Virus record (IMG/VR): IMGVR_UViG_3300050142_000050
Coordinates: 96,001-160,000 of that record
DNA: 64,000 nt
Origin: a virus
Lineage: Duplodnaviria; Caudoviricetes
Reading direction: 5' to 3' (one strand)
In this document: positions 8,693 to 16,900 of the stretch, in pieces
Position numbering within the stretch: the stretch's first letter is position 1
Layout of the letters: every line of letters begins with the position of its first letter
Translations under genes and position numbers: made by a program
The notes under the pieces: model-generated
Seen by the model: only the letters and a program-made list of their open reading frames with translations
What the model was told of the DNA's origin: nothing
Database searches by the model: none

Positions 8693-11600
8693 TTATCCGT
8701 TGAAGAAGATATCGACGAGCTTTGCTTTTCCGACCTCCATGTTCCTCTCTGCGATACCTAGGAGAGGACTCTTCACGATACGGTTGATGATCGAGGTGAG
8801 TGAGAACAGAGCACCCACAGGTACACCCGATTCCGTATAGTGCGATTCTTCGGAAACGTGTGAGATGATTGCCTTATTGGCATTACCGAAACAGAGCTTA
8901 TCTCCAGCTTCAGCCGTGAGAGTCTCTTGGATCATGTATTCCAACAAAACAGTATCCTCAGTGAACTCGATACCCTTGTAATAGGTACCAGGTGCCACAT
9001 ATCCAGGACGCTCAGAGATCTTCGAACCTGGGATAGCAGAGAGAGCAGCGTTCTGTTGACGCTCTTCTTTCTCATATACCTTCAGGATCGATTTGAGGCT
9101 GTCTGAGAGCTCATTTCGGTCACAGGCGTAAAGTATGCGCAGCTTACTTACAGTGCCTGTATAGCCCGCTGTAGGCGTCTGACGACTAAGCTTAGCCATC
9201 AGGTCCAACTTAGACTGCGTCTGGTAGAGTTCAGTCTGCACCATGACGTCATCGCTGATCACACATAGAGGAGTGGTCGTATCGACATGATCACCAGGTT
9301 TGACAGTCGATATGAGGATGGCATTCTTCTGAGTGACCACTGGACACTGGTGAGCAGGCGTCATATTCAGACGATTAGCCATAGCGCGAGTGATCTCGCA
9401 GGCGTCTTCGTGATTACTCCCTTTTTCACACAGAGCCACCGTTTCGATGATACCATGCTTGAACGTCACTTGCTTGGACATCGGATCGGGTACGAAGAAC
9501 CCATCGTTGTAGATGAGGATATCTCCTTCCTTGATCTTCTCTCCCACATGGACATTGACCTTCCTTGTTTGGAGGAGGAATGCCCCTGAGATCTGCGAGT
9601 AAGCATCCTTGTAGGAATAAGACTTCACTTCACCAGGAGTAGTGGTACCGATCAGTTCCAGACGGATGTAGTAGAGACAGCTCTCGCTACCATCTGAGAG
9701 AGCTTTCACCAACTGACTCTGCTTACGCACCAAATCACGATCAGGGATACCATCCACCGAATCACATCGTAGACGAGATACCACCTTACCATAGGTGGAA
9801 TTCGTCAGAGCGAAGATACCGTTGGCTGGATAAGAACCCAGTGACCGCTCGGTGACCAAGATACCGACGAAGTTGTGATCCTTGCGATACTTGTCGATGA
9901 TGGGGTCGGAATAAGGAAGAGTCAGCTTCCGCAAAGGATCGATAGGCTTATCAGCATATCGGACCCGCAGTACCTTAGCTTTCTCATCGATAGACTCGAC
10001 TACGCCATCTGCTTCAGCAGCGATAGCGAATGTGTCACTGACCAGATGAGGAAGAACCGCATCATACCCAGTACGCACAGAAGCTGTCTCACCATCTCCA
10101 TGGTTAGGTACATAGTGAGAGATCTGGATGCTCAGGTAGGAAGCACGCTTACCATCGTCCGTGGTACCACCAGGCATCACGTTAGTACCGATGGCGAGCA
10201 TCTGAGGAGCTTCTAGCTCATCACCCTCCTTATACGCCTTAGGGATACCGTGGACGTTGTCGATGTTAGGAGATGCCGACAGATAGGAGGTGATACCTAC
10301 CTTACCAGAGTCAGGTACAGCATCAGAGACGATACCTAAACCATCCTTGGGGTAGATACGAGACTCCTGTGTGATAGCATCCGCAGATCGACCGCCACGA
10401 CCCGTGAAGGTGTAGTTAGCAGACTGTTTCACTTCATGGATTGGATTGATCGTGTCGTTGATCGCCACAGTAGCATCCTGGACGATCTTCTGGAAGACAT
10501 CTTCAGGATTGATCGAGAATGACTTCTTACCATTGGTACGACGCCACCTGGAGAATTCCTTGAAGATAGACTCATAGACGATCCCATTCCACCGTTCAAA
10601 CTTACGGAAGCGGTGGTTAGCGATAGACGCCGTATCGATCGCGTAATAGTCGGTGACCATCATGTTTGCACGGAGTAAGAGAGCTGACCACACGGTCGGC
10701 TCGCTCATATCCCGCAGGACGGTCTCGGTGATGGGATCAACAAAGAAATCGACGAATTGTGTAACCGTCTGGATAGTCCCAGGCTTCATCTTCTTGGACA
10801 CCAGTACCTTTGTGTAAGGAGCTGGGAAGTTCAAGTCCTTGAAGTTGATATCCTTGAGATCAGCCCAAGTCAAACCGGCTGCGATCAAAGACCGCTGGAG
10901 GGGATATCGGTTAAAGACCAAGAAACCATCAGCGAAGCGGATCGAGATATCATCGATCCCGATCACGGGTCGGTTACCACTCGAATAGAAACGATACTGG
11001 AGATTGATCTTCTTGAACAGATTCTCCAGACCCATCTCATATCCCAAGGTGAATACCAGAGGGATCTTCTCACCCGGGAAACTGACGAGCGTGTATTCAT
11101 TAACCTGCTTTTGGAGACCAGCCTCACTACCCAGTACATCGACCAAGAGTTGGTTGAAGGACTTCCAATGAGAAAGCTCCTCACCCTTGTGCGATACTTT
11201 ACGAATGGAGTTCTTAAAGTCCCAGAACAGGAGCTCCATATCACTCGTGATACCGACAAAGATACCAAACTTCGATGACAGAGATGTCGCCACCTTTTGG
11301 ATAGCCGACATCCGATCAGTGATAGGTGCACCATCCTGACCGAAGTAGAAGGTCATACCTCCCACAGTGATCTCAGTGAAGCCCTTACTGATCGCTGAAT
11401 AGTCATAGGGGAGAGGCTTTACGGGATCTTCAGCCTTACCCACCTGAGCAGTGAGCATACCTTCTGCGCGCAGTTTCAGGATATGAGCGATGATCACGTG
11501 TTCGAAACTATTACGCTTCGATTCCACACGTGATACGAGCACCTTCCCGAAGTGCGAAGAGAGGGATACTTCACTATCACTGATCTTACAGATCGGAAGA

Positions 11601-13303
11601 GTGACAGCCTGGCGAGTCAGGATATACTCAGTACCACTGATCGTGATCGTACCATCCTTCGAGATGGTAGGACGAGAGAACTTGATGGTGTGAGACCTAC
11701 CATCGATATCCCGCATGGACACCTTGTAGGTGGTCGTCTTATCCATCTCAGTGCTGTGATGTTCTTCCTCGATATGAGTGATGAACAAACCATGCTTAGC
11801 CGTAGAAGCCAGTACCTTCGCCAGATCGGCATGGTACATCTTCTCCTGATAGGCCTTATCGATAGCCACCAATGTGGACTGCTTGTGAGACTCCTCAGGA
11901 GCTCCTGTCAAGAAGTCCATCTTCTTGGGCTTAAAGCTCTCAGGAGGCTGCTCCTGGATCAGCTCACTCAAAGTCTTACCACCGATGGTTACATTGAAGT
12001 GATTGTCCACTAGCTCTCGTTTACGAGCTTCCTTCTTGGGTTCGACAGCCACCTTCTCAGCGACCACCTTGTCCACATGCGTACGGATGTGATCTTCGAG
12101 CTTAGTATCCTGCTCACCCAATTCGATCGGTCTTACCACCACCTGCGATACAGGAGTGGTATGGTCGTCATGGAGATAACCACCAGCAGCATCAGCTGGA
12201 TCATGCTTTACCGCGAACTTGTCTTCTTTGGGGAGCTCTTTGACCTTCTCCTCGATAGGAGCACTCGTCTCACTGTCGATGATACCCTGCTCTTCGATCT
12301 CACCTGTCTCTTCATGAGGATCAGTCTCCATATCGATGAAGTCACCACTGGGATGACGCAGTGTCATGAAGTGTGTGTAAAGCTTCCCAAAGAAGCCAGG
12401 GTCATTAGAGAACTCGATGATGTCACCCAGGTTATAGATGACTGCCTTCCTACCCTTGTACAGGACGATGTTGATCACCTTAAGGACATCCGTCGGAATT
12501 CGCTCCAGGAGCGACGAGGAGCGCAGGTCCCGTAAGGATGGGTGATCCTTACCCAAGAGCTTAAGATCCGTCTTATACGGCGTCACATTCAACCTACGGC
12601 TACGTCCTAGGACATATCCCAAGATATGCACCAAAGGAAACAGCGTGGGATCATGACGCAGTTTAGCCATGGTCGAATTCGACAGCTCTTTTGCAGCTGC
12701 GACAAAAGCAGCCTTCGTCGTCGTGCCCTCATTCTGAGGTAGGAACAAAAAGTGCTGACATCCAGTACCGATCGATTCGATCGAGTTCAAGATAGTGCGG
12801 AAGATCACATCGAACTTGCGATACTCCTCATTGACACCCGGCGTCTTGAGATACATAATCGGCGAATAGTCGACACGCGTGATCGTCCCAGGCATGGTCC
12901 CGATAGTGCGAGGTACCATGATCTTCTTATAGTCACGGTGATGCTGATACCAATAACTGATACCCGCCATCATCGGAGTAGGACGGAAGACCAGATTCTC
13001 CTTCACTGGGAGAGGCTTCGAATGCTCATCTGCGATCTGATTGTAGATCAGGATATAGCGAGGAGCCTTAGCCTCATCGATCGGACTGAAGTGAGGAGTA
13101 GGGAGACAATCACCCTCAGGTTCGAGAGTCTCCATATTTCCGATAGTGTGGACCACCGACCCGATAGGCATGGCCAGCTCTGTGAAGTCATCGATCTTCT
13201 TAGGAGCCTGTCCTATACGCCGGGTATGAAACATCGTGTAGAAGCGCTGGTAGGAGATGCGCATAGCCTCCATACCCAGCCCGGTAAAGGGGTTAAAGTC
13301 CAT
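8693..13303 (-). CDS. rpoB: Virion RNA polymerase beta-like subunit, N-terminal part (phiKZ gp178-like)
   Basis: 1536 aa with diverged beta motifs PDSGKVGI, TTDDGKRA, GSNHEDA and AGDKL...NKAII; lacks the beta C-terminus, which is encoded separately at 55823. Confidence 0.9.
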   Translation of the reverse strand: MDFNPFTGLGMEAMRISYQRFYTMFHTRRIGQAPKKIDDFTELAMPIGSVVHTIGNMETLEPEGDCLPTPHFSPIDEAKAPRYILIYNQIADEHSKPLPVKENLVFRPTPMMAGISYWYQHHRDYKKIMVPRTIGTMPGTITRVDYSPIMYLKTPGVNEEYRKFDVIFRTILNSIESIGTGCQHFLFLPQNEGTTTKAAFVAAAKELSNSTMAKLRHDPTLFPLVHILGYVLGRSRRLNVTPYKTDLKLLGKDHPSLRDLRSSSLLERIPTDVLKVINIVLYKGRKAVIYNLGDIIEFSNDPGFFGKLYTHFMTLRHPSGDFIDMETDPHEETGEIEEQGIIDSETSAPIEEKVKELPKEDKFAVKHDPADAAGGYLHDDHTTPVSQVVVRPIELGEQDTKLEDHIRTHVDKVVAEKVAVEPKKEARKRELVDNHFNVTIGGKTLSELIQEQPPESFKPKKMDFLTGAPEESHKQSTLVAIDKAYQEKMYHADLAKVLASTAKHGLFITHIEEEHHSTEMDKTTTYKVSMRDIDGRSHTIKFSRPTISKDGTITISGTEYILTRQAVTLPICKISDSEVSLSSHFGKVLVSRVESKRNSFEHVIIAHILKLRAEGMLTAQVGKAEDPVKPLPYDYSAISKGFTEITVGGMTFYFGQDGAPITDRMSAIQKVATSLSSKFGIFVGITSDMELLFWDFKNSIRKVSHKGEELSHWKSFNQLLVDVLGSEAGLQKQVNEYTLVSFPGEKIPLVFTLGYEMGLENLFKKINLQYRFYSSGNRPVIGIDDISIRFADGFLVFNRYPLQRSLIAAGLTWADLKDINFKDLNFPAPYTKVLVSKKMKPGTIQTVTQFVDFFVDPITETVLRDMSEPTVWSALLLRANMMVTDYYAIDTASIANHRFRKFERWNGIVYESIFKEFSRWRRTNGKKSFSINPEDVFQKIVQDATVAINDTINPIHEVKQSANYTFTGRGGRSADAITQESRIYPKDGLGIVSDAVPDSGKVGITSYLSASPNIDNVHGIPKAYKEGDELEAPQMLAIGTNVMPGGTTDDGKRASYLSIQISHYVPNHGDGETASVRTGYDAVLPHLVSDTFAIAAEADGVVESIDEKAKVLRVRYADKPIDPLRKLTLPYSDPIIDKYRKDHNFVGILVTERSLGSYPANGIFALTNSTYGKVVSRLRCDSVDGIPDRDLVRKQSQLVKALSDGSESCLYYIRLELIGTTTPGEVKSYSYKDAYSQISGAFLLQTRKVNVHVGEKIKEGDILIYNDGFFVPDPMSKQVTFKHGIIETVALCEKGSNHEDACEITRAMANRLNMTPAHQCPVVTQKNAILISTVKPGDHVDTTTPLCVISDDVMVQTELYQTQSKLDLMAKLSRQTPTAGYTGTVSKLRILYACDRNELSDSLKSILKVYEKEERQQNAALSAIPGSKISERPGYVAPGTYYKGIEFTEDTVLLEYMIQETLTAEAGDKLCFGNANKAIISHVSEESHYTESGVPVGALFSLTSIINRIVKSPLLGIAERNMEVGKAKLVDIFFNG

Positions 13304-13360
13304 ACTACCCTCTTATTGTGAGATAAATATCATACGATGAGTAGAGTTAGATAGAGGATA

Positions 13361-13388
13361 TAGACTGGGGCCATGTGGCCCCAGTCTA
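13361..13388 (-). terminator. Hairpin directly after the beta' exon 2 stop
   Basis: tagactggggcc-atgt-ggccccagtcta, 12-bp stem. Confidence 0.55.
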
Positions 13389-13565
13389 TCAATCCAAACT
13401 ACCAGGTTCTGTATAGGTGAGATTGTGCAACCAAAGATCGATAAGGTAAGTACTCCCACCTGTCACGAACCTTAGGTCAGTATTGATCACACTCGAAATA
13501 CCACTGAGGTAATCCCGGTTCTCCTCATTGGCATCTTTAGTGTACAAAAACTCGATGGAAACTTT
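13389..13565 (-). CDS. rpoC: Exon 2 of the virion RNAP beta' N-terminal subunit (58 aa; not in the ORF track)
   Basis: Reads KVSIEFLYTKDANEENRDYLSGISSVINTDLRFVTGGSTYLIDLWLHNLTYTEPGSLD*. Joined to exon 1 it gives GADHDGD-KVS in frame. Confidence 0.85.
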   Translation of the reverse strand, partial: KVSIEFLYTKDANEENRDYLSGISSVINTDLRFVTGGSTYLIDLWLHNLTYTEPGSLD

Positions 13566-13936
13566 CCTGATGTTCAGCAGTGCTCGTTAGACACTACCCG
13601 TCCTTTCTTCCTTAGGAAAAGAGGACTGCTTACACTCTCGTGTAAGAGCAGACTATATCTTCACCCTCTCGTTGGAGTAGGGTGCTCCCCATTTCGGGAT
13701 CACTCGATCCCTACACCGTGGCAGGTGGTTAGTCGTTGAGCACATCGCATGACCTATAGAGGCTTTAGCGACTTCGCTGCGGATTTTCTCTATCTCTGTA
13801 ATTTTTACCATCTCGATGTGATTAGCATCGCCCCTCACTATCTAGTTTCCTAGGTGGGTTGGTATACAGAGCCTAACGAGACGTTCCCGCAATTAGAGGA
13901 GATTCACTTTACCATCTCTGATAAAGAGGACATCGC

Positions 13937-15268
13937 TTATTGCATAAAACACGACTTTACTTCAATGACAGGAAACTTCTTTAGGTCCACATGCTGGATA
14001 TTCCAACTCCTCCAGCGCATGGTACCATCACTCGACTTAAGCATCCGGGACATTACCGCCGGATCACAACGCTTCTCTCGATCCTCATTACACCACTCCG
14101 TCACACTGGTGTAATATCTCACTACTCCATCGCCCCCTACGATATTCAGAGGACGATCCGTCGCCTTAGTCCGATCGAAGATATCTAAGACCTCCTCAGG
14201 ATATACAGGCCACTTCACGAGCTCGCCTTCTTCTGCGAGGCGGAAACCCATACCCTTCCAAGGTATGACTGTCTCATACATCAACAGACGATCGAGCACA
14301 TAGTGACGCATCCCATACTTCACCGCTACCTCAGAGCGATTCCCCATGGCGAGCACTCGATGGGTCTTGAGATCCATCACCACGATTGACTTATCGGCCT
14401 TATCGCCGATACGACTCGGATTACGAGACAACTCCTCCCAACTGCGCGGATCATCAGCCTTCTTAAAGATATACCCATGGAAAGGCTTCCCATCAGTAGT
14501 CCTCCGCTCCACCGCCTGGTGAGCACTTTGAGGAGACACACCGAGGAGCCTCGCCATCTCATGGTATCCACCCACCACGAACTCCTGCCCATCACTCAGC
14601 CTCCTGAGGAGTATCTTCTTCTGAGTCTCACCCCGCACACCATCAGTGAAGGCATGCATGTTGTTATCAGAGTAAGTAGCCCACTCGAGATTTCGGATGG
14701 TGTTATTGAGCTTATTGGAGTCCTTATGGTTGACCGTAAGATGTTCAGTGTCCAGAGGATGATCCAAGAAGGTGAGAGCCAACAGTCGATGGAGACGTTG
14801 TTGCTTACCATCGATTTTAACAGTAGTCTCCATATATCCGTTTCTCGGAGAGACACCGACGGGATACTTGTCGACGTACCGTCGCAACTCAGGACCACGT
14901 TCTACAATCCTTATTTCCAAGGACACCCCAGGTACCTTGAACCACACTCCCAGTGGGATGTGTTCTCCTATCCTCTCACGGACTCTATACTGACGATAAT
15001 CCCATTCGAGATTTTCTATCCGGAGATCATCACGATTCCCATTTCGGAAAGACACCGACAACCACTCAGGATCCTTGTCGGTCGGCTTATACGTTATCAG
15101 CATCAGCCTATCGAGCGGGTGCGAAGAAGGCTTGTGACTTTTACCACGGATCTTAACTGCACGTCGACAGTGTCGACTGATGTATTCTTTCTGAACCTCT
15201 CCGGTAGATATCAGCGTGACGACTGCATCTTCGGAGATGTCATATAGAGGATTTGTTGGAATTCTCAT
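13937..15268 (-). CDS. Intron-encoded HNH homing endonuclease with C-terminal NUMOD1/IENR1-like repeats
   Basis: LHRLLALTF...VNHKDSNKLNNTIRNLEWATYSDNNMHA is an HNH core; three following repeats resemble NUMOD1 helix-turn-helix units. Confidence 0.9.
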   Translation of the reverse strand: MRIPTNPLYDISEDAVVTLISTGEVQKEYISRHCRRAVKIRGKSHKPSSHPLDRLMLITYKPTDKDPEWLSVSFRNGNRDDLRIENLEWDYRQYRVRERIGEHIPLGVWFKVPGVSLEIRIVERGPELRRYVDKYPVGVSPRNGYMETTVKIDGKQQRLHRLLALTFLDHPLDTEHLTVNHKDSNKLNNTIRNLEWATYSDNNMHAFTDGVRGETQKKILLRRLSDGQEFVVGGYHEMARLLGVSPQSAHQAVERRTTDGKPFHGYIFKKADDPRSWEELSRNPSRIGDKADKSIVVMDLKTHRVLAMGNRSEVAVKYGMRHYVLDRLLMYETVIPWKGMGFRLAEEGELVKWPVYPEEVLDIFDRTKATDRPLNIVGGDGVVRYYTSVTEWCNEDREKRCDPAVMSRMLKSSDGTMRWRSWNIQHVDLKKFPVIEVKSCFMQ

Positions 15269-15273
15269 AATTC

Positions 15274-15306
15274 ACCTAGTTGTTATTTCACCATATAATA
15301 CTAGGT
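15274..15306 (-). promoter_or_regulatory. Hairpin sequestering the HNH ribosome-binding site, with TATG in its loop
   Basis: Minus strand ACCTAGT-attaTATGgtgaaataaca-ACTAGGT-gaattATG; the 3' arm contains the AGGTG Shine-Dalgarno sequence. Confidence 0.65.
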
Positions 15307-15373
15307 AAAATTTTCACACCTTTTTACAAGGGTATTTTCCTGTCAATTATCGTGTTCTATGCACTAAGGTCAA

Positions 15374-16900
15374 ATCGCCGTCATGATCGGCACCCATAGC
15401 TGCCATCTTACTCGGATGGACCATGGCTGCATCCATGAATGCATTCTTGAGAATTGGGTATTGCTTCAGGGTGGTACTGAAACTACCACCAGAGACCAAG
15501 TCCACCAACTGCACCGCTCGGGACGGTGTCGTCGATACCACATGGACTCTACCTGGATATGTAGAACCCTGTTCAATCACCGGATAACGGGTGACTAGAC
15601 AGTGTGCTCCATTACTGCTCACCTCAGCTACGATGTAAAGCATCTCAGCATAGGTGATAGGTCTGATCTTCTTCTTGTCGATAGGACGAGGCCATCCGTT
15701 CTCCAAGTCGACGATACTGCGGAACAGTGCGATTTCATCACCCTCGTCATATACGAAGAGGAGTGCATATTTGTCACCTGTTATATCCTCGATCATGACC
15801 GGTGAACGTCGTAGTTCCACGTTTCGGAAATCGTTGAAGATATCCTCATTACCAGAGGTGGTCATCCACTTATCACGGACTGGCGAATCTACTCTGGTGT
15901 ATACCAGCTCGAAAGTCTTTGGATCACTCAATGCCACATTGGTAGTGGTCTCGGCTTTGAAGATAGGAGTCGAGAAGATCTGTCGCAGATTGAAGGCTGC
16001 GATAGGAGTGAGTCCCTTGACAGTCTGGTAGATACCCACCATCACGTCGTCAGCTCCCAGGAGCTGTACGTCTTCTGGGGAGTTGGCTAGGAAGGGAGCA
16101 GCGGTGATCACATTACGAGTACCACCAGCCACATGGCGGCGTGCGAAGTTGCTCTGGATGAAACCGCGCTTACCATCGAGGAAGTTCTCGATATATTCGT
16201 AGATCTCCTGAGCTTTGGACTGGAGCTGCCATCTCACTGGATCATAGAGAGGTGAGTTGGATCCACGAGGGATAGCTCTGGTGTACATCTGTAGGGAATT
16301 GTAGAGCTTGTTGATCTCATCCTGGATCAGTCGACCAGAACTATCATTGGCGATATCACGCAGACCTGCTGGTATCACGATATGCCGATCAAACTCTGTG
16401 ATCTTCTGATACTTGAGGATCACCTCGATGTTTTCATCTCGTTTGCTAGAACCAGTGCGAGGGAACTCGATTTCATGGAAGTGACTCATGAAGAAGGAGT
16501 AGCCAGTATCGGCTTGATCATTCTCAAGAGGATCACCTGTGAACCGAATGAAGTCATTCTTGACACGATCAAAGATCGCATACTCAGCGCCAGACATGAT
16601 GTCCTTATAGAGGCGCTTGAGCTTACAGAGGATGGCGAAGATCTTGGGATGGAGGATCCTGGTACCCAGATCGATCCACCCGAATTTGAGCATGCGATCA
16701 GGGGAACCTACTTGTCCGAAGATCTCTTCGGAGTAAAGACCTTCTGCATGGTAGATAGAAGTCGATGGTTCAAATACCATCGAGCTAGTTACCTGACGAG
16801 CTCTCTTCTCATGGATGAACTGATTGACATCCATGATTCTGATATTGACAGGATCATCGATTGTCCCGATATCCCCAGGTAGACGTTCGGTAGATACCAT
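15374..16900 (-). CDS. rpoC: Exon 1 of the virion RNAP beta' N-terminal subunit (phiKZ gp180-like)
   Basis: GKRGFIQSNFARRHV, TRYPVIE and catalytic-type MGADHDGD motifs. The track ORF runs 8 further codons into the intron. Confidence 0.9.

Follow-up and report, generated by a model that had tools for sequence, protein, structure and literature searches.

Among the closest described systems is phage phiKZ, for which introns have been noted in the genes of both gp55 and gp180 (PMC11512511, citing Mesyanzhinov 2002 and Ceyssens 2014); its gp180/gp179 intron is also cited, after the same two studies, in PMC12676376 and PMC10914365. For the virion RNA polymerase (RNAP) intron of phage 201phi2-1 (gp273/274), splicing is supported by proteomics and two spliced reads (PMC11512511), and in PhiPA3 the endonuclease gp210 nicks the intron-less allele of a competitor and gives a competitive advantage (Birkholz et al. 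2024, PMC11620839). Here we analyzed a 64-kb stretch of phage DNA (the window: bases 96001–160000 of the 249,638-bp IMG/VR virus record IMGVR_UViG_3300050142_000050); the 24 sequencing runs listed as containing this stretch are, without exception, metagenomes of leaf litter. On its minus strand, a 517-aa open reading frame (ORF; 16900..15347) is followed by a 443-aa ORF (15268..13937), ~370 nt without a long ORF, a frame beginning with KVSIEF (stop at 13389) and a 1536-aa ORF (13303..8693). This arrangement very probably reflects a mobile group I intron of the IA type with an HNH endonuclease gene, which interrupts the gene for the virion RNAP beta'-N piece, is spliced out to yield a 567-aa protein and homes by means of its HNH protein. 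The parts of the locus are:

15374..16900 (−): exon 1 of the virion RNAP beta'-N gene, 509 codons, ending with GAC GGC GAT (DxDGD); from the ORF and the phrog_2986 match
13566..15373 (−): group I intron, 1808 nt, IA type, 5′ splice site after U15374 and terminal G 13566; from Rfam, sequence, orthologous introns and RNAalifold
15347..15373 (−): read-through tail of the unspliced ORF, 8 codons (LTLVHRTR) and stop; from ORF and sequence
15328..15376 (−): P1 5′ strand, exon GAU (15376-15374) and ~46 intron nt of the P1 extension; from duplex and mini-hairpin folds
15273..15306 (−): hairpin ACCUAGU/ACUAGGU, 3′ arm with Shine-Dalgarno sequence AGGUG (15277-15273); minimum free energy (MFE) −12.8 kcal/mol, z −2.3
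13937..15268 (−): intron ORF, 443 aa, HNH_3 endonuclease of I-HmuI type, in the P1 loop; from Pfam, phrog_59 and PDB 1U3E
13929..13975 (−): P1 extension 3′ strand and internal guide sequence GUC (13931-13929); from duplex and mini-hairpin folds
13629..13927 (−): ribozyme core P2-P9; from the Rfam alignment and RNAalifold, P7 read from the alignment
13566..13626 (−): P9.1 (13626-13600), P9.2 (13598-13576), then 3′ tail UGAACAUCAGG with terminal G 13566; from sequence and RNAalifold
13389..13565 (−): exon 2, 58 codons (KVSIEF...GSLD) and stop; from homolog alignment and profile

Introns of this kind have been known from phiKZ-like phages, and that of the window is a new example, inserted 12 nt away from the phiKZ point. 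In phiKZ, the host gene and the gene order are the same (gp181-like gene, beta'-N, HNH gene, core, exon 2, beta gene), the group I core (Rfam, 92 bits) is ~60% identical to that of the window, the ORF is likewise 5′ to the core, the 3′ tails agree (GAACAUAACG), and gp179, the best-covering phage match of the window HNH protein, is its homolog (26% identity over 246 aa, E 2e-7). The two differ in the insertion point, as gp180 ends with ...LGAD and its exon 2 starts with FDGDTVSF (GAD-FDGD, compared to DHDGD-K in the window; hyphens mark the point of insertion), and in the size of the endonuclease (~357 aa for gp179 vs. 443 aa). A first-pass annotation of the window had pointed to gp179 as an HNH gene between gp178 and gp180; this position is correct, but the gene does not merely lie between the two, since it sits in the homologous group I intron of gp180, 12 nt upstream. 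The same annotation had drawn an analogy to gp210 of PhiPA3, whose role in competition has been shown (PMC11620839); as regards the gene, this analogy is to the neighboring one. Both phages carry an HNH-bearing group I intron, a putative one in PhiPA3, at catalytic-region codons of a phiKZ-like virion RNAP gene (PMC11620839), whereas the gp210 intron is located in the neighboring beta gene (the phiKZ gp178 homolog, at D1072, after two conserved Asp; PMC11620839) and the window intron in beta'-N; the gp178-like gene of the window is a single uninterrupted ORF.

The introns of phage EL (gp184-185-186), 201phi2-1 (gp273/274) and Vibrio phages vB_pir03 and VP4B fall into the same 15-nt DxDGD stretch of beta'-N. 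In EL and vB_pir03, the gene is cut at another point (DxD-GD), and in VP4B it is cut after DxDGD as in the window, but by an ORF-less intron whose core is only 41% identical. The public records of phiKZ (L006), EL (L007), VP4B (L001) and vB_pir03 (L008) list the beta'-N exons as separate genes or leave exon 2 unannotated, and that of vB_pir03 holds three tiny 'hypothetical' coding sequences (CDSs) within the apparent ribozyme part.

The interrupted gene and its second exon

The 517-aa ORF reads ...GADHDGD up to the GAT codon that ends at 15374. It matches phrog_2986 ('RNA polymerase beta subunit') with 4e-141 over profile positions 7-490 of 539, indicating that a C-terminal piece is absent from the 517-aa protein. 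A total of 732 metagenomic homologs were found, of which the uninterrupted ones are ~560 aa long and up to 69% identical to the window protein. The phrog_2986 match, the annotation of Erwinia phage RAY gp163 as 'vRNAP beta' subunit 1' and a gene order syntenic with phiKZ gp181-gp180-gp179-gp178 support the assignment of the interrupted gene to the beta'-N piece of the virion RNAP.

Directly downstream of G 13566, the sequence AAA GTT TCC ATC GAG TTT encodes KVSIEF, the start of the 58-aa exon 2, whose 5′ end has neither a start codon nor a ribosome site of its own. In the nearest uninterrupted homologs, DHDGD continues with KVSIEY or KCSLEY and then with ...TDLRF[IV]TGGS.YLIDL.LH.LT, matching exon 2. 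Spliced, unspliced and exon-2 sequences were scored with a profile built from 53 uninterrupted homologs. The conceptually spliced 567-aa protein reaches 824.7 bits and aligns gap-free across DGD-KVS, the unspliced ORF scores 763.9 bits, i.e., 61 bits below the spliced product, and exon 2 alone gives 43.7 bits (E 1.7e-15). The DGD-KVS junction is far beyond chance, and since alternative pairs of splice points do not yield the spliced sequence, the junction is GGCGAU-AAAGUU. A tblastn search of phage records with exon 2 alone gave no match at E ≤ 1, because the query is too short and too diverged, so that its homology becomes visible only with a profile.

The first-pass annotation had placed a group I intron directly after the DxDGD motif of the virion RNAP, with exon 1 ending in GAC GGC GAT at 15374 and the intron in G 13566, and had proposed a hidden exon (KVSIEF plus 58 aa) as well as a protein that, without splicing, stops eight residues after the motif. 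The coordinates are exact at the level of the sequence, exon 2 measures 58 aa with KVSIEF counted in, the eight residues are LTLVHRTR followed by a stop, the intron is confirmed by its Rfam match (see below) together with the gap-free spliced alignment, and the alignment with uninterrupted homologs, proposed there as a check, continues into the KVSIEF-like peptide with no gap at the junction. The gene model of an essential virion enzyme is thereby corrected, its predicted product being 567 aa rather than 517 aa.

The group I ribozyme core

Rfam model RF00028 matches positions 13968..13629 (−) over its full length (1-253) with 75.2 bits, compared to a gathering threshold of 50 (E 2.9e-17). The P, Q, R and S boxes, all of which the first-pass annotation had listed, are present in the intron (AAUUGCGGG, AAUCCGCAGC, CAACGACUAA and AAGAUAUAGUCU). 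The helices of the core are:

13927-13906 (−): P2
13901-13896 / 13690-13685 (−): P3
13891-13886 / 13783-13778 (−): P4
13881-13878 / 13790-13787 (−): P5
13871-13794 (−): P5 extensions
13777-13740 (−): P6
13734-13730 / 13655-13651 (−): P7, pseudoknot, read directly from the alignment
13729-13715 (−): P7.1, with compensatory changes
13711-13696 (−): P7.2, with compensatory changes
13684-13662 (−): P8
13646-13629 (−): P9

Folding of five aligned orthologous introns with RNAalifold, from the guide sequence to exon 2, gave 94 pairs, among which 52 show one or more compensatory double changes, and recovered P2, P3, P4, P5 with its extensions, P6, P7.1, P7.2, P8, P9 and P9.2. The pseudoknot helix P7 reads GACUA/UAGUC in four introns and GGCCA/UGGUC in that of the related locus L011, corresponding to one compensatory pair. 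The presence of P7.1 and P7.2 assigns the intron to subgroup IA, the usual phage type. At the 3′ end, the tail motif GAACAU..(A/G)G is common to the relatives and phiKZ. A UCC-GGA pairing proposed by RNAalifold at the 3′ junction was dropped as an artefact, exon 1 being absent from the alignment.

One other contig, found in three leaf-litter runs, matches only the core boxes of the window intron (13646-13704 and 13886-13904, with 3 differences), which points to a related intron carried by a different genome in this habitat.

The endonuclease gene is enclosed by an extended P1

The guide sequence GUC (13931-13929) is located 3′ of the endonuclease gene, and a GUC immediately precedes P2 in all five introns inserted after DxDGD (site A). 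In the four of them that carry an ORF, the first 30-50 intron nt are complementary to the 40-60 nt before GUC, with sequences that differ from intron to intron. In the window, the stems of the P1 5′ strand comprise 15373-15371, 15368-15365, 15363-15349 and 15345-15336 and the segments of the 3′ strand 13975-13966, 13955-13941 and 13939-13933, and the P1 extension holds a 15-bp stem (15363-15349 / 13955-13941) and a 10-bp stem (15345-15336 / 13975-13966). Joining the two arms by a tetraloop (mini-P1) and comparing them with dinucleotide shuffles gave z-scores of −6.1 for the window, for which none of 200 shuffles was as good, and of −5.8, −5.1 and −2.0 for the other three ORF-bearing introns.

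The ORF-less intron of locus L015 opens with a plain hairpin: GAU of the exon is paired with GUC, the U-G pair falling at the splice site, and a 14-bp stem comes next. MFE folds of all four relatives, L015 included, pair GAU with GUC and place a U-G wobble at the splice site; the canonical GAU/GUC register is assigned to the window because these four relatives show it and not on the basis of energy. An alternative guide candidate, GUCGU (13955-13951), was rejected, as it lies within the 15-bp helix of the P1 extension and the relatives have GUC directly before P2.

With the guide 3′ of the ORF and the two arms flanking it, the HNH gene lies in the loop of an extended P1, so that the 5′ splice-site helix must close across 1.4 kb. 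Moreover, the stop codon of the ORF is inside the P1 3′ strand in four of four ORF-bearing introns (UAA 13939-13937 in the window). That the P1 loop harbors the ORF, and P1 itself the stop codon, is a descriptive point beyond what is known. Translation of the ORF to this stop and splicing would exclude each other on one RNA.

The start codon of the HNH gene is 4 nt downstream of the Shine-Dalgarno sequence AGGUG (15277-15273). A 7-bp hairpin at 15273-15306 (−), with TATG in its loop (z −2.3), sequesters this Shine-Dalgarno sequence, and the ribosome sites of L011 and L013 are, by eye, also paired, with different sequences.

The intron-encoded HNH endonuclease

The first-pass annotation had also proposed that the intron encodes an HNH nuclease, and the 443-aa protein does contain an HNH_3 domain (Pfam PF13392, residues 175-204, 1.4e-11, 44.3 bits vs. 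a cut-off of 24.8) and matches phrog_59 (6.9e-32). Its sole sequence match among solved structures in a phmmer search is 1U3E (I-HmuI of phage SPO1; 2.7e-5). In line with this, an AlphaFold (AF2) model built with 27 relatives (predicted local distance difference test, pLDDT, 84.6) retrieved 1U3E by Foldseek (E 5.8e-6, probability 1.0) and nothing else below 1e-3. The motif NHKDSNKLNN..NLEW of the window protein aligns to DHKDGNKDNN..NLRW of 1U3E, and N180, H181, N193 and N202 are invariant among the 27 relatives. The first 130 residues repeat the half-motif ...N..D....NLEW without the histidine; the last ~220 residues show no recognizable match, and Foldseek found none for the N-terminal or C-terminal parts.

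I-HmuI, which is HNH_3-type and encoded by the intron of the SPO1 DNA polymerase gene, is thus the only solved structure matching the window protein, and it nicks one strand. It is much smaller (174 aa vs. 443 aa), lacking the N-terminal half-motif domain and the ~220-aa C-terminal region of the window protein, and differs in host gene and phage group.

Introns at the same site encode HNH orthologs of full length with 44-60% identity, exon 1 being somewhat less diverged (60-75% identical). The first-pass annotation had further proposed that this nuclease would cut intron-less beta' alleles of related phages, which is reasonable and would fit the patchy distribution of the intron. The Gly codon of the motif is GGC in five of five intron-bearing alleles and GGT in four of four close empty alleles. 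This sample is small, and the pattern would agree with either co-conversion of exon sequence on the flanks or a difference in recognition. That GAT (U at −1) is limited to intron-bearing alleles was rejected, as three more empty alleles also have GAT.

Relatives and mobility of the intron

Orthologous introns at the same site were found at L011/L012 (1803 nt, HNH protein of 449 aa), L013 (1758 nt) and L016 (1832 nt), and L015 carries an ORF-less 392-nt intron at the same point, whose core is 75% identical to that of L013. The Rfam matches of the relatives' introns score 76-90 bits. All five site-A introns lie between GGCGAT and AAAGT and end in G. In contrast to these, the nearest relative of the window gene (P0006, locus L009) is uninterrupted and without an Rfam match. 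A megablast search of phage records with the locus gave no match, and a scan of IMG/VR for related loci found none.

For most homologs, the intron state was deduced from the end of the called protein, with a check at the DNA level for 12 loci. Judged by their protein ends, 57 of the best 119 metagenomic homologs are uninterrupted, 35 end after the first D (the phiKZ site, 12 nt upstream), 23 after DxDGD and 2 after DxD. About half of the environmental beta'-N alleles thus seem to carry an interruption at one of two or three points in a span of five codons. At L018 (site B) and in vB_pir03, core-like sequence or exon 2 is present, but the Rfam search gave nothing at the gathering score.

In a gene tree built for the 49 closest homologs, 18 are uninterrupted, 15 have site A and 16 site B occupied. 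The three states require 22 changes on this tree, compared to a mean of 23.6 for shuffled labels, and at least 7 changes per occupied state are already demanded by the well-supported branches; the sister of the window gene is uninterrupted (support 98). Repeated gain and loss of mobile introns would give such a near-random scatter.

Two further descriptive points go beyond what is known: the rapid turnover at two or three alternative points of insertion in a stretch of five codons, and the presence of one nuclease family in both polymerase paralogs (see below). The locus adds a well-resolved case, with four orthologs and one ORF-less form, to the phiKZ-like RNAP introns, one of which acts in phage-phage competition, and its multiple insertion points and shared nuclease family make it a good natural system for studying the retargeting of homing endonucleases and competition.

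Introns in other RNA polymerase genes

The contig of L013 carries a second member of the HNH family (P0143, at L022, 2619-6266), which shares 55% identity with the first and is encoded within a group I intron (79 bits) inserted behind ...LPNADFDGD in the non-virion beta'-N gene (phrog_2987). At this paralog site, the exon ends with the identical GACGGCGAT as at the virion-gene site, and the tails of the introns resemble each other. Beyond the DxDGD motif, the virion and non-virion beta' paralogs have little in common. The same HNH/intron family after DxDGD in both paralogs indicates that the element follows the motif and not the gene.

Within the 64-kb window, no further Rfam intron was found beyond that in beta'-N. 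Outside the window, the same genome contains two more:

G000:C1:41251-41567 (+): ORF-less group I intron, 76.5 bits (locus L003)
G000:C1:58658-58968 (+): ORF-less group I intron, 76.4 bits (locus L004)

The first interrupts the non-virion RNAP beta'-N gene (phrog_2987) after ...LPNAD, with exon 2 starting with YDGDTLAG (NAD-YDGD, the phiKZ-type point), and the second splits the non-virion RNAP beta gene, whose flanking ORFs correspond to phrog_3295 positions 8-403 and 403-687. All three introns of the window phage are therefore in catalytic RNAP subunits: virion beta'-N, non-virion beta'-N and non-virion beta.

A model of splicing and homing, and its alternatives

From the core, the junction, the orthologous introns, the fold and motif of the HNH protein and the patchy distribution described above, we infer that the intron is spliced and that its HNH protein is an active nuclease directed at intron-less alleles. 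In the pre-mRNA, the terminal exon bases GAU would pair with the guide GUC, with U15374 opposite G13931; the guide, 1.44 kb downstream, would be joined to the splice site by the long P1 extension around the endonuclease gene. The core (P3-P9) would then fold, guanosine would attack after U15374 and be exchanged for the terminal G13566, and the exons would be ligated as GGCGAU-AAAGUU, giving an mRNA for a 567-aa GADHDGD-KVSIEF... protein of the form found in intron-less relatives. Translation of the HNH protein would start at a ribosome site of its own, on intron RNA that is either unspliced or excised, and the protein, being I-HmuI-like, would most likely nick intron-less alleles near the DxDGD codons in co-infecting relatives, whereupon repair would copy the intron in.

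Several observations weigh against this model. The MFE of the window mini-P1 favors a register shifted by two (GGCG/UGUC) over the canonical GAU/GUC, and a P10 pairing of the guide region with exon 2 was not found. No RNA run is among the listed sequencing runs containing the stretch, and a long-read transcriptome study reported no spliced reads for the phiKZ intron (PMC10914365). An intron-less variant of the window phage was not seen in contigs of four leaf-litter DNA runs (positions 13000-16000), so that the presence/absence polymorphism is known only between species-level relatives, whose intron states, as stated above, were mostly read from protein ends and at only 12 loci from DNA.

Of the alternatives, the one that fares best keeps a splicing ribozyme but assumes that the HNH protein no longer promotes homing, either because it is inactive or because it has been kept for another use, e.g., as a weapon against the polymerase gene of competitors without spread of the intron. 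Such interference has been shown for a related intron nuclease in the neighboring gene (PMC11620839), and the window HNH protein is more diverged from its orthologs (44-50% identical) than is exon 1 (60-64%) and has an 8-aa C-terminal extension running into P1. However, the catalytic motif and the full length have been kept in 27 relatives, active homing with loss would distribute occupied and empty sites over the gene tree in the near-random way observed, and interference and homing can coexist. We consider a loss of homing unlikely.

Far less probable is that the intron is a dead relic that does not splice, and that the polymerase works with a beta'-N cut off directly behind DxDGD, with or without a separate 52-aa exon-2 peptide starting at TTG 13547; this would add a further split to an enzyme that is split already. 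The RNAP genes of jumbo phages are naturally split, with splits proposed to be intron-derived (PMC7598289), VP4B exon 2 is a separate CDS in GenBank, and the missing spliced phiKZ reads (PMC10914365) would agree with a relic. On the other hand, the score of the core clearly exceeds the Rfam threshold, and the five orthologs show compensatory changes; the KVSIEF codons lie upstream of any start codon, yet match uninterrupted homologs and abut the terminal G in every relative; TTG 13547 is not preceded by a Shine-Dalgarno sequence; and for the vRNAP intron of 201phi2-1, proteomics and the two spliced reads support splicing (PMC11512511).

That the HNH gene is free-standing between two genes and the Rfam match incidental is hardly credible and contradicted by the data, because even though such genes are common in these phages, and L011, L015, L016 and L021 have an extra opposite-strand gene after exon 2 whose L011 copy matches an HNH family, the ORF is bracketed by the two P1 strands, an ORF-less form of the same intron occupies the same site in L015 (with the 75% core identity to L013 noted above), and both the ORF and an Rfam match are missing at L009, the uninterrupted sister locus.

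A broader and more tentative reading, which we regard as possible but on balance doubtful, takes in the data from relatives and paralogs. The 15 nt for DxDGD would be a contested landing strip with at least three insertion points (D-xDGD, DxD-GD and directly after DxDGD) and a turnover near the resolution of the tree. One HNH/intron family would move back and forth between the two beta' paralogs, virion and non-virion, insertion at a given point would remove the targets of the nucleases tied to the other points, ORF-less introns would persist as immunity, and endonuclease translation and splicing would be mutually exclusive. In that case, the window phage could be protected from the nucleases of competitors by an ORF-less intron like that of its non-virion beta' gene, and the exclusivity of translation and splicing would fit a phage that transcribes in a ribosome-free compartment.

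Neighboring genes and unusual homologs

The gene that follows exon 2 in the window, and the additional gene present at this place in relatives, are:

8693..13303 (−): next gene, virion RNAP beta-like subunit, 1536 aa, phiKZ gp178 homolog, uninterrupted (phrog_3148, 8e-218)
L011 7544-8122 (−), L016 7608-8135 (−), L015 6570-7046 (−), L021 3323-3835 (−): extra opposite-strand gene; the L011 copy matches phrog_99 (6e-12) and, weakly, AP2

In several relatives, this opposite-strand gene encodes 158-192 aa and separates the beta gene from exon 2 (or from the end of beta'-N); it is absent from the window. The family matched by the L011 copy (phrog_99) is an HNH family, and the gene probably encodes a free-standing endonuclease at a second hot spot.

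Among the homologs of exon 1, P0111 (746 aa) is ~200 aa longer than the near-identical P0108 and has a normal tail but no readable DxDGD. Its extra length may stem from in-frame read-through of an insert at the motif, or from an intein.

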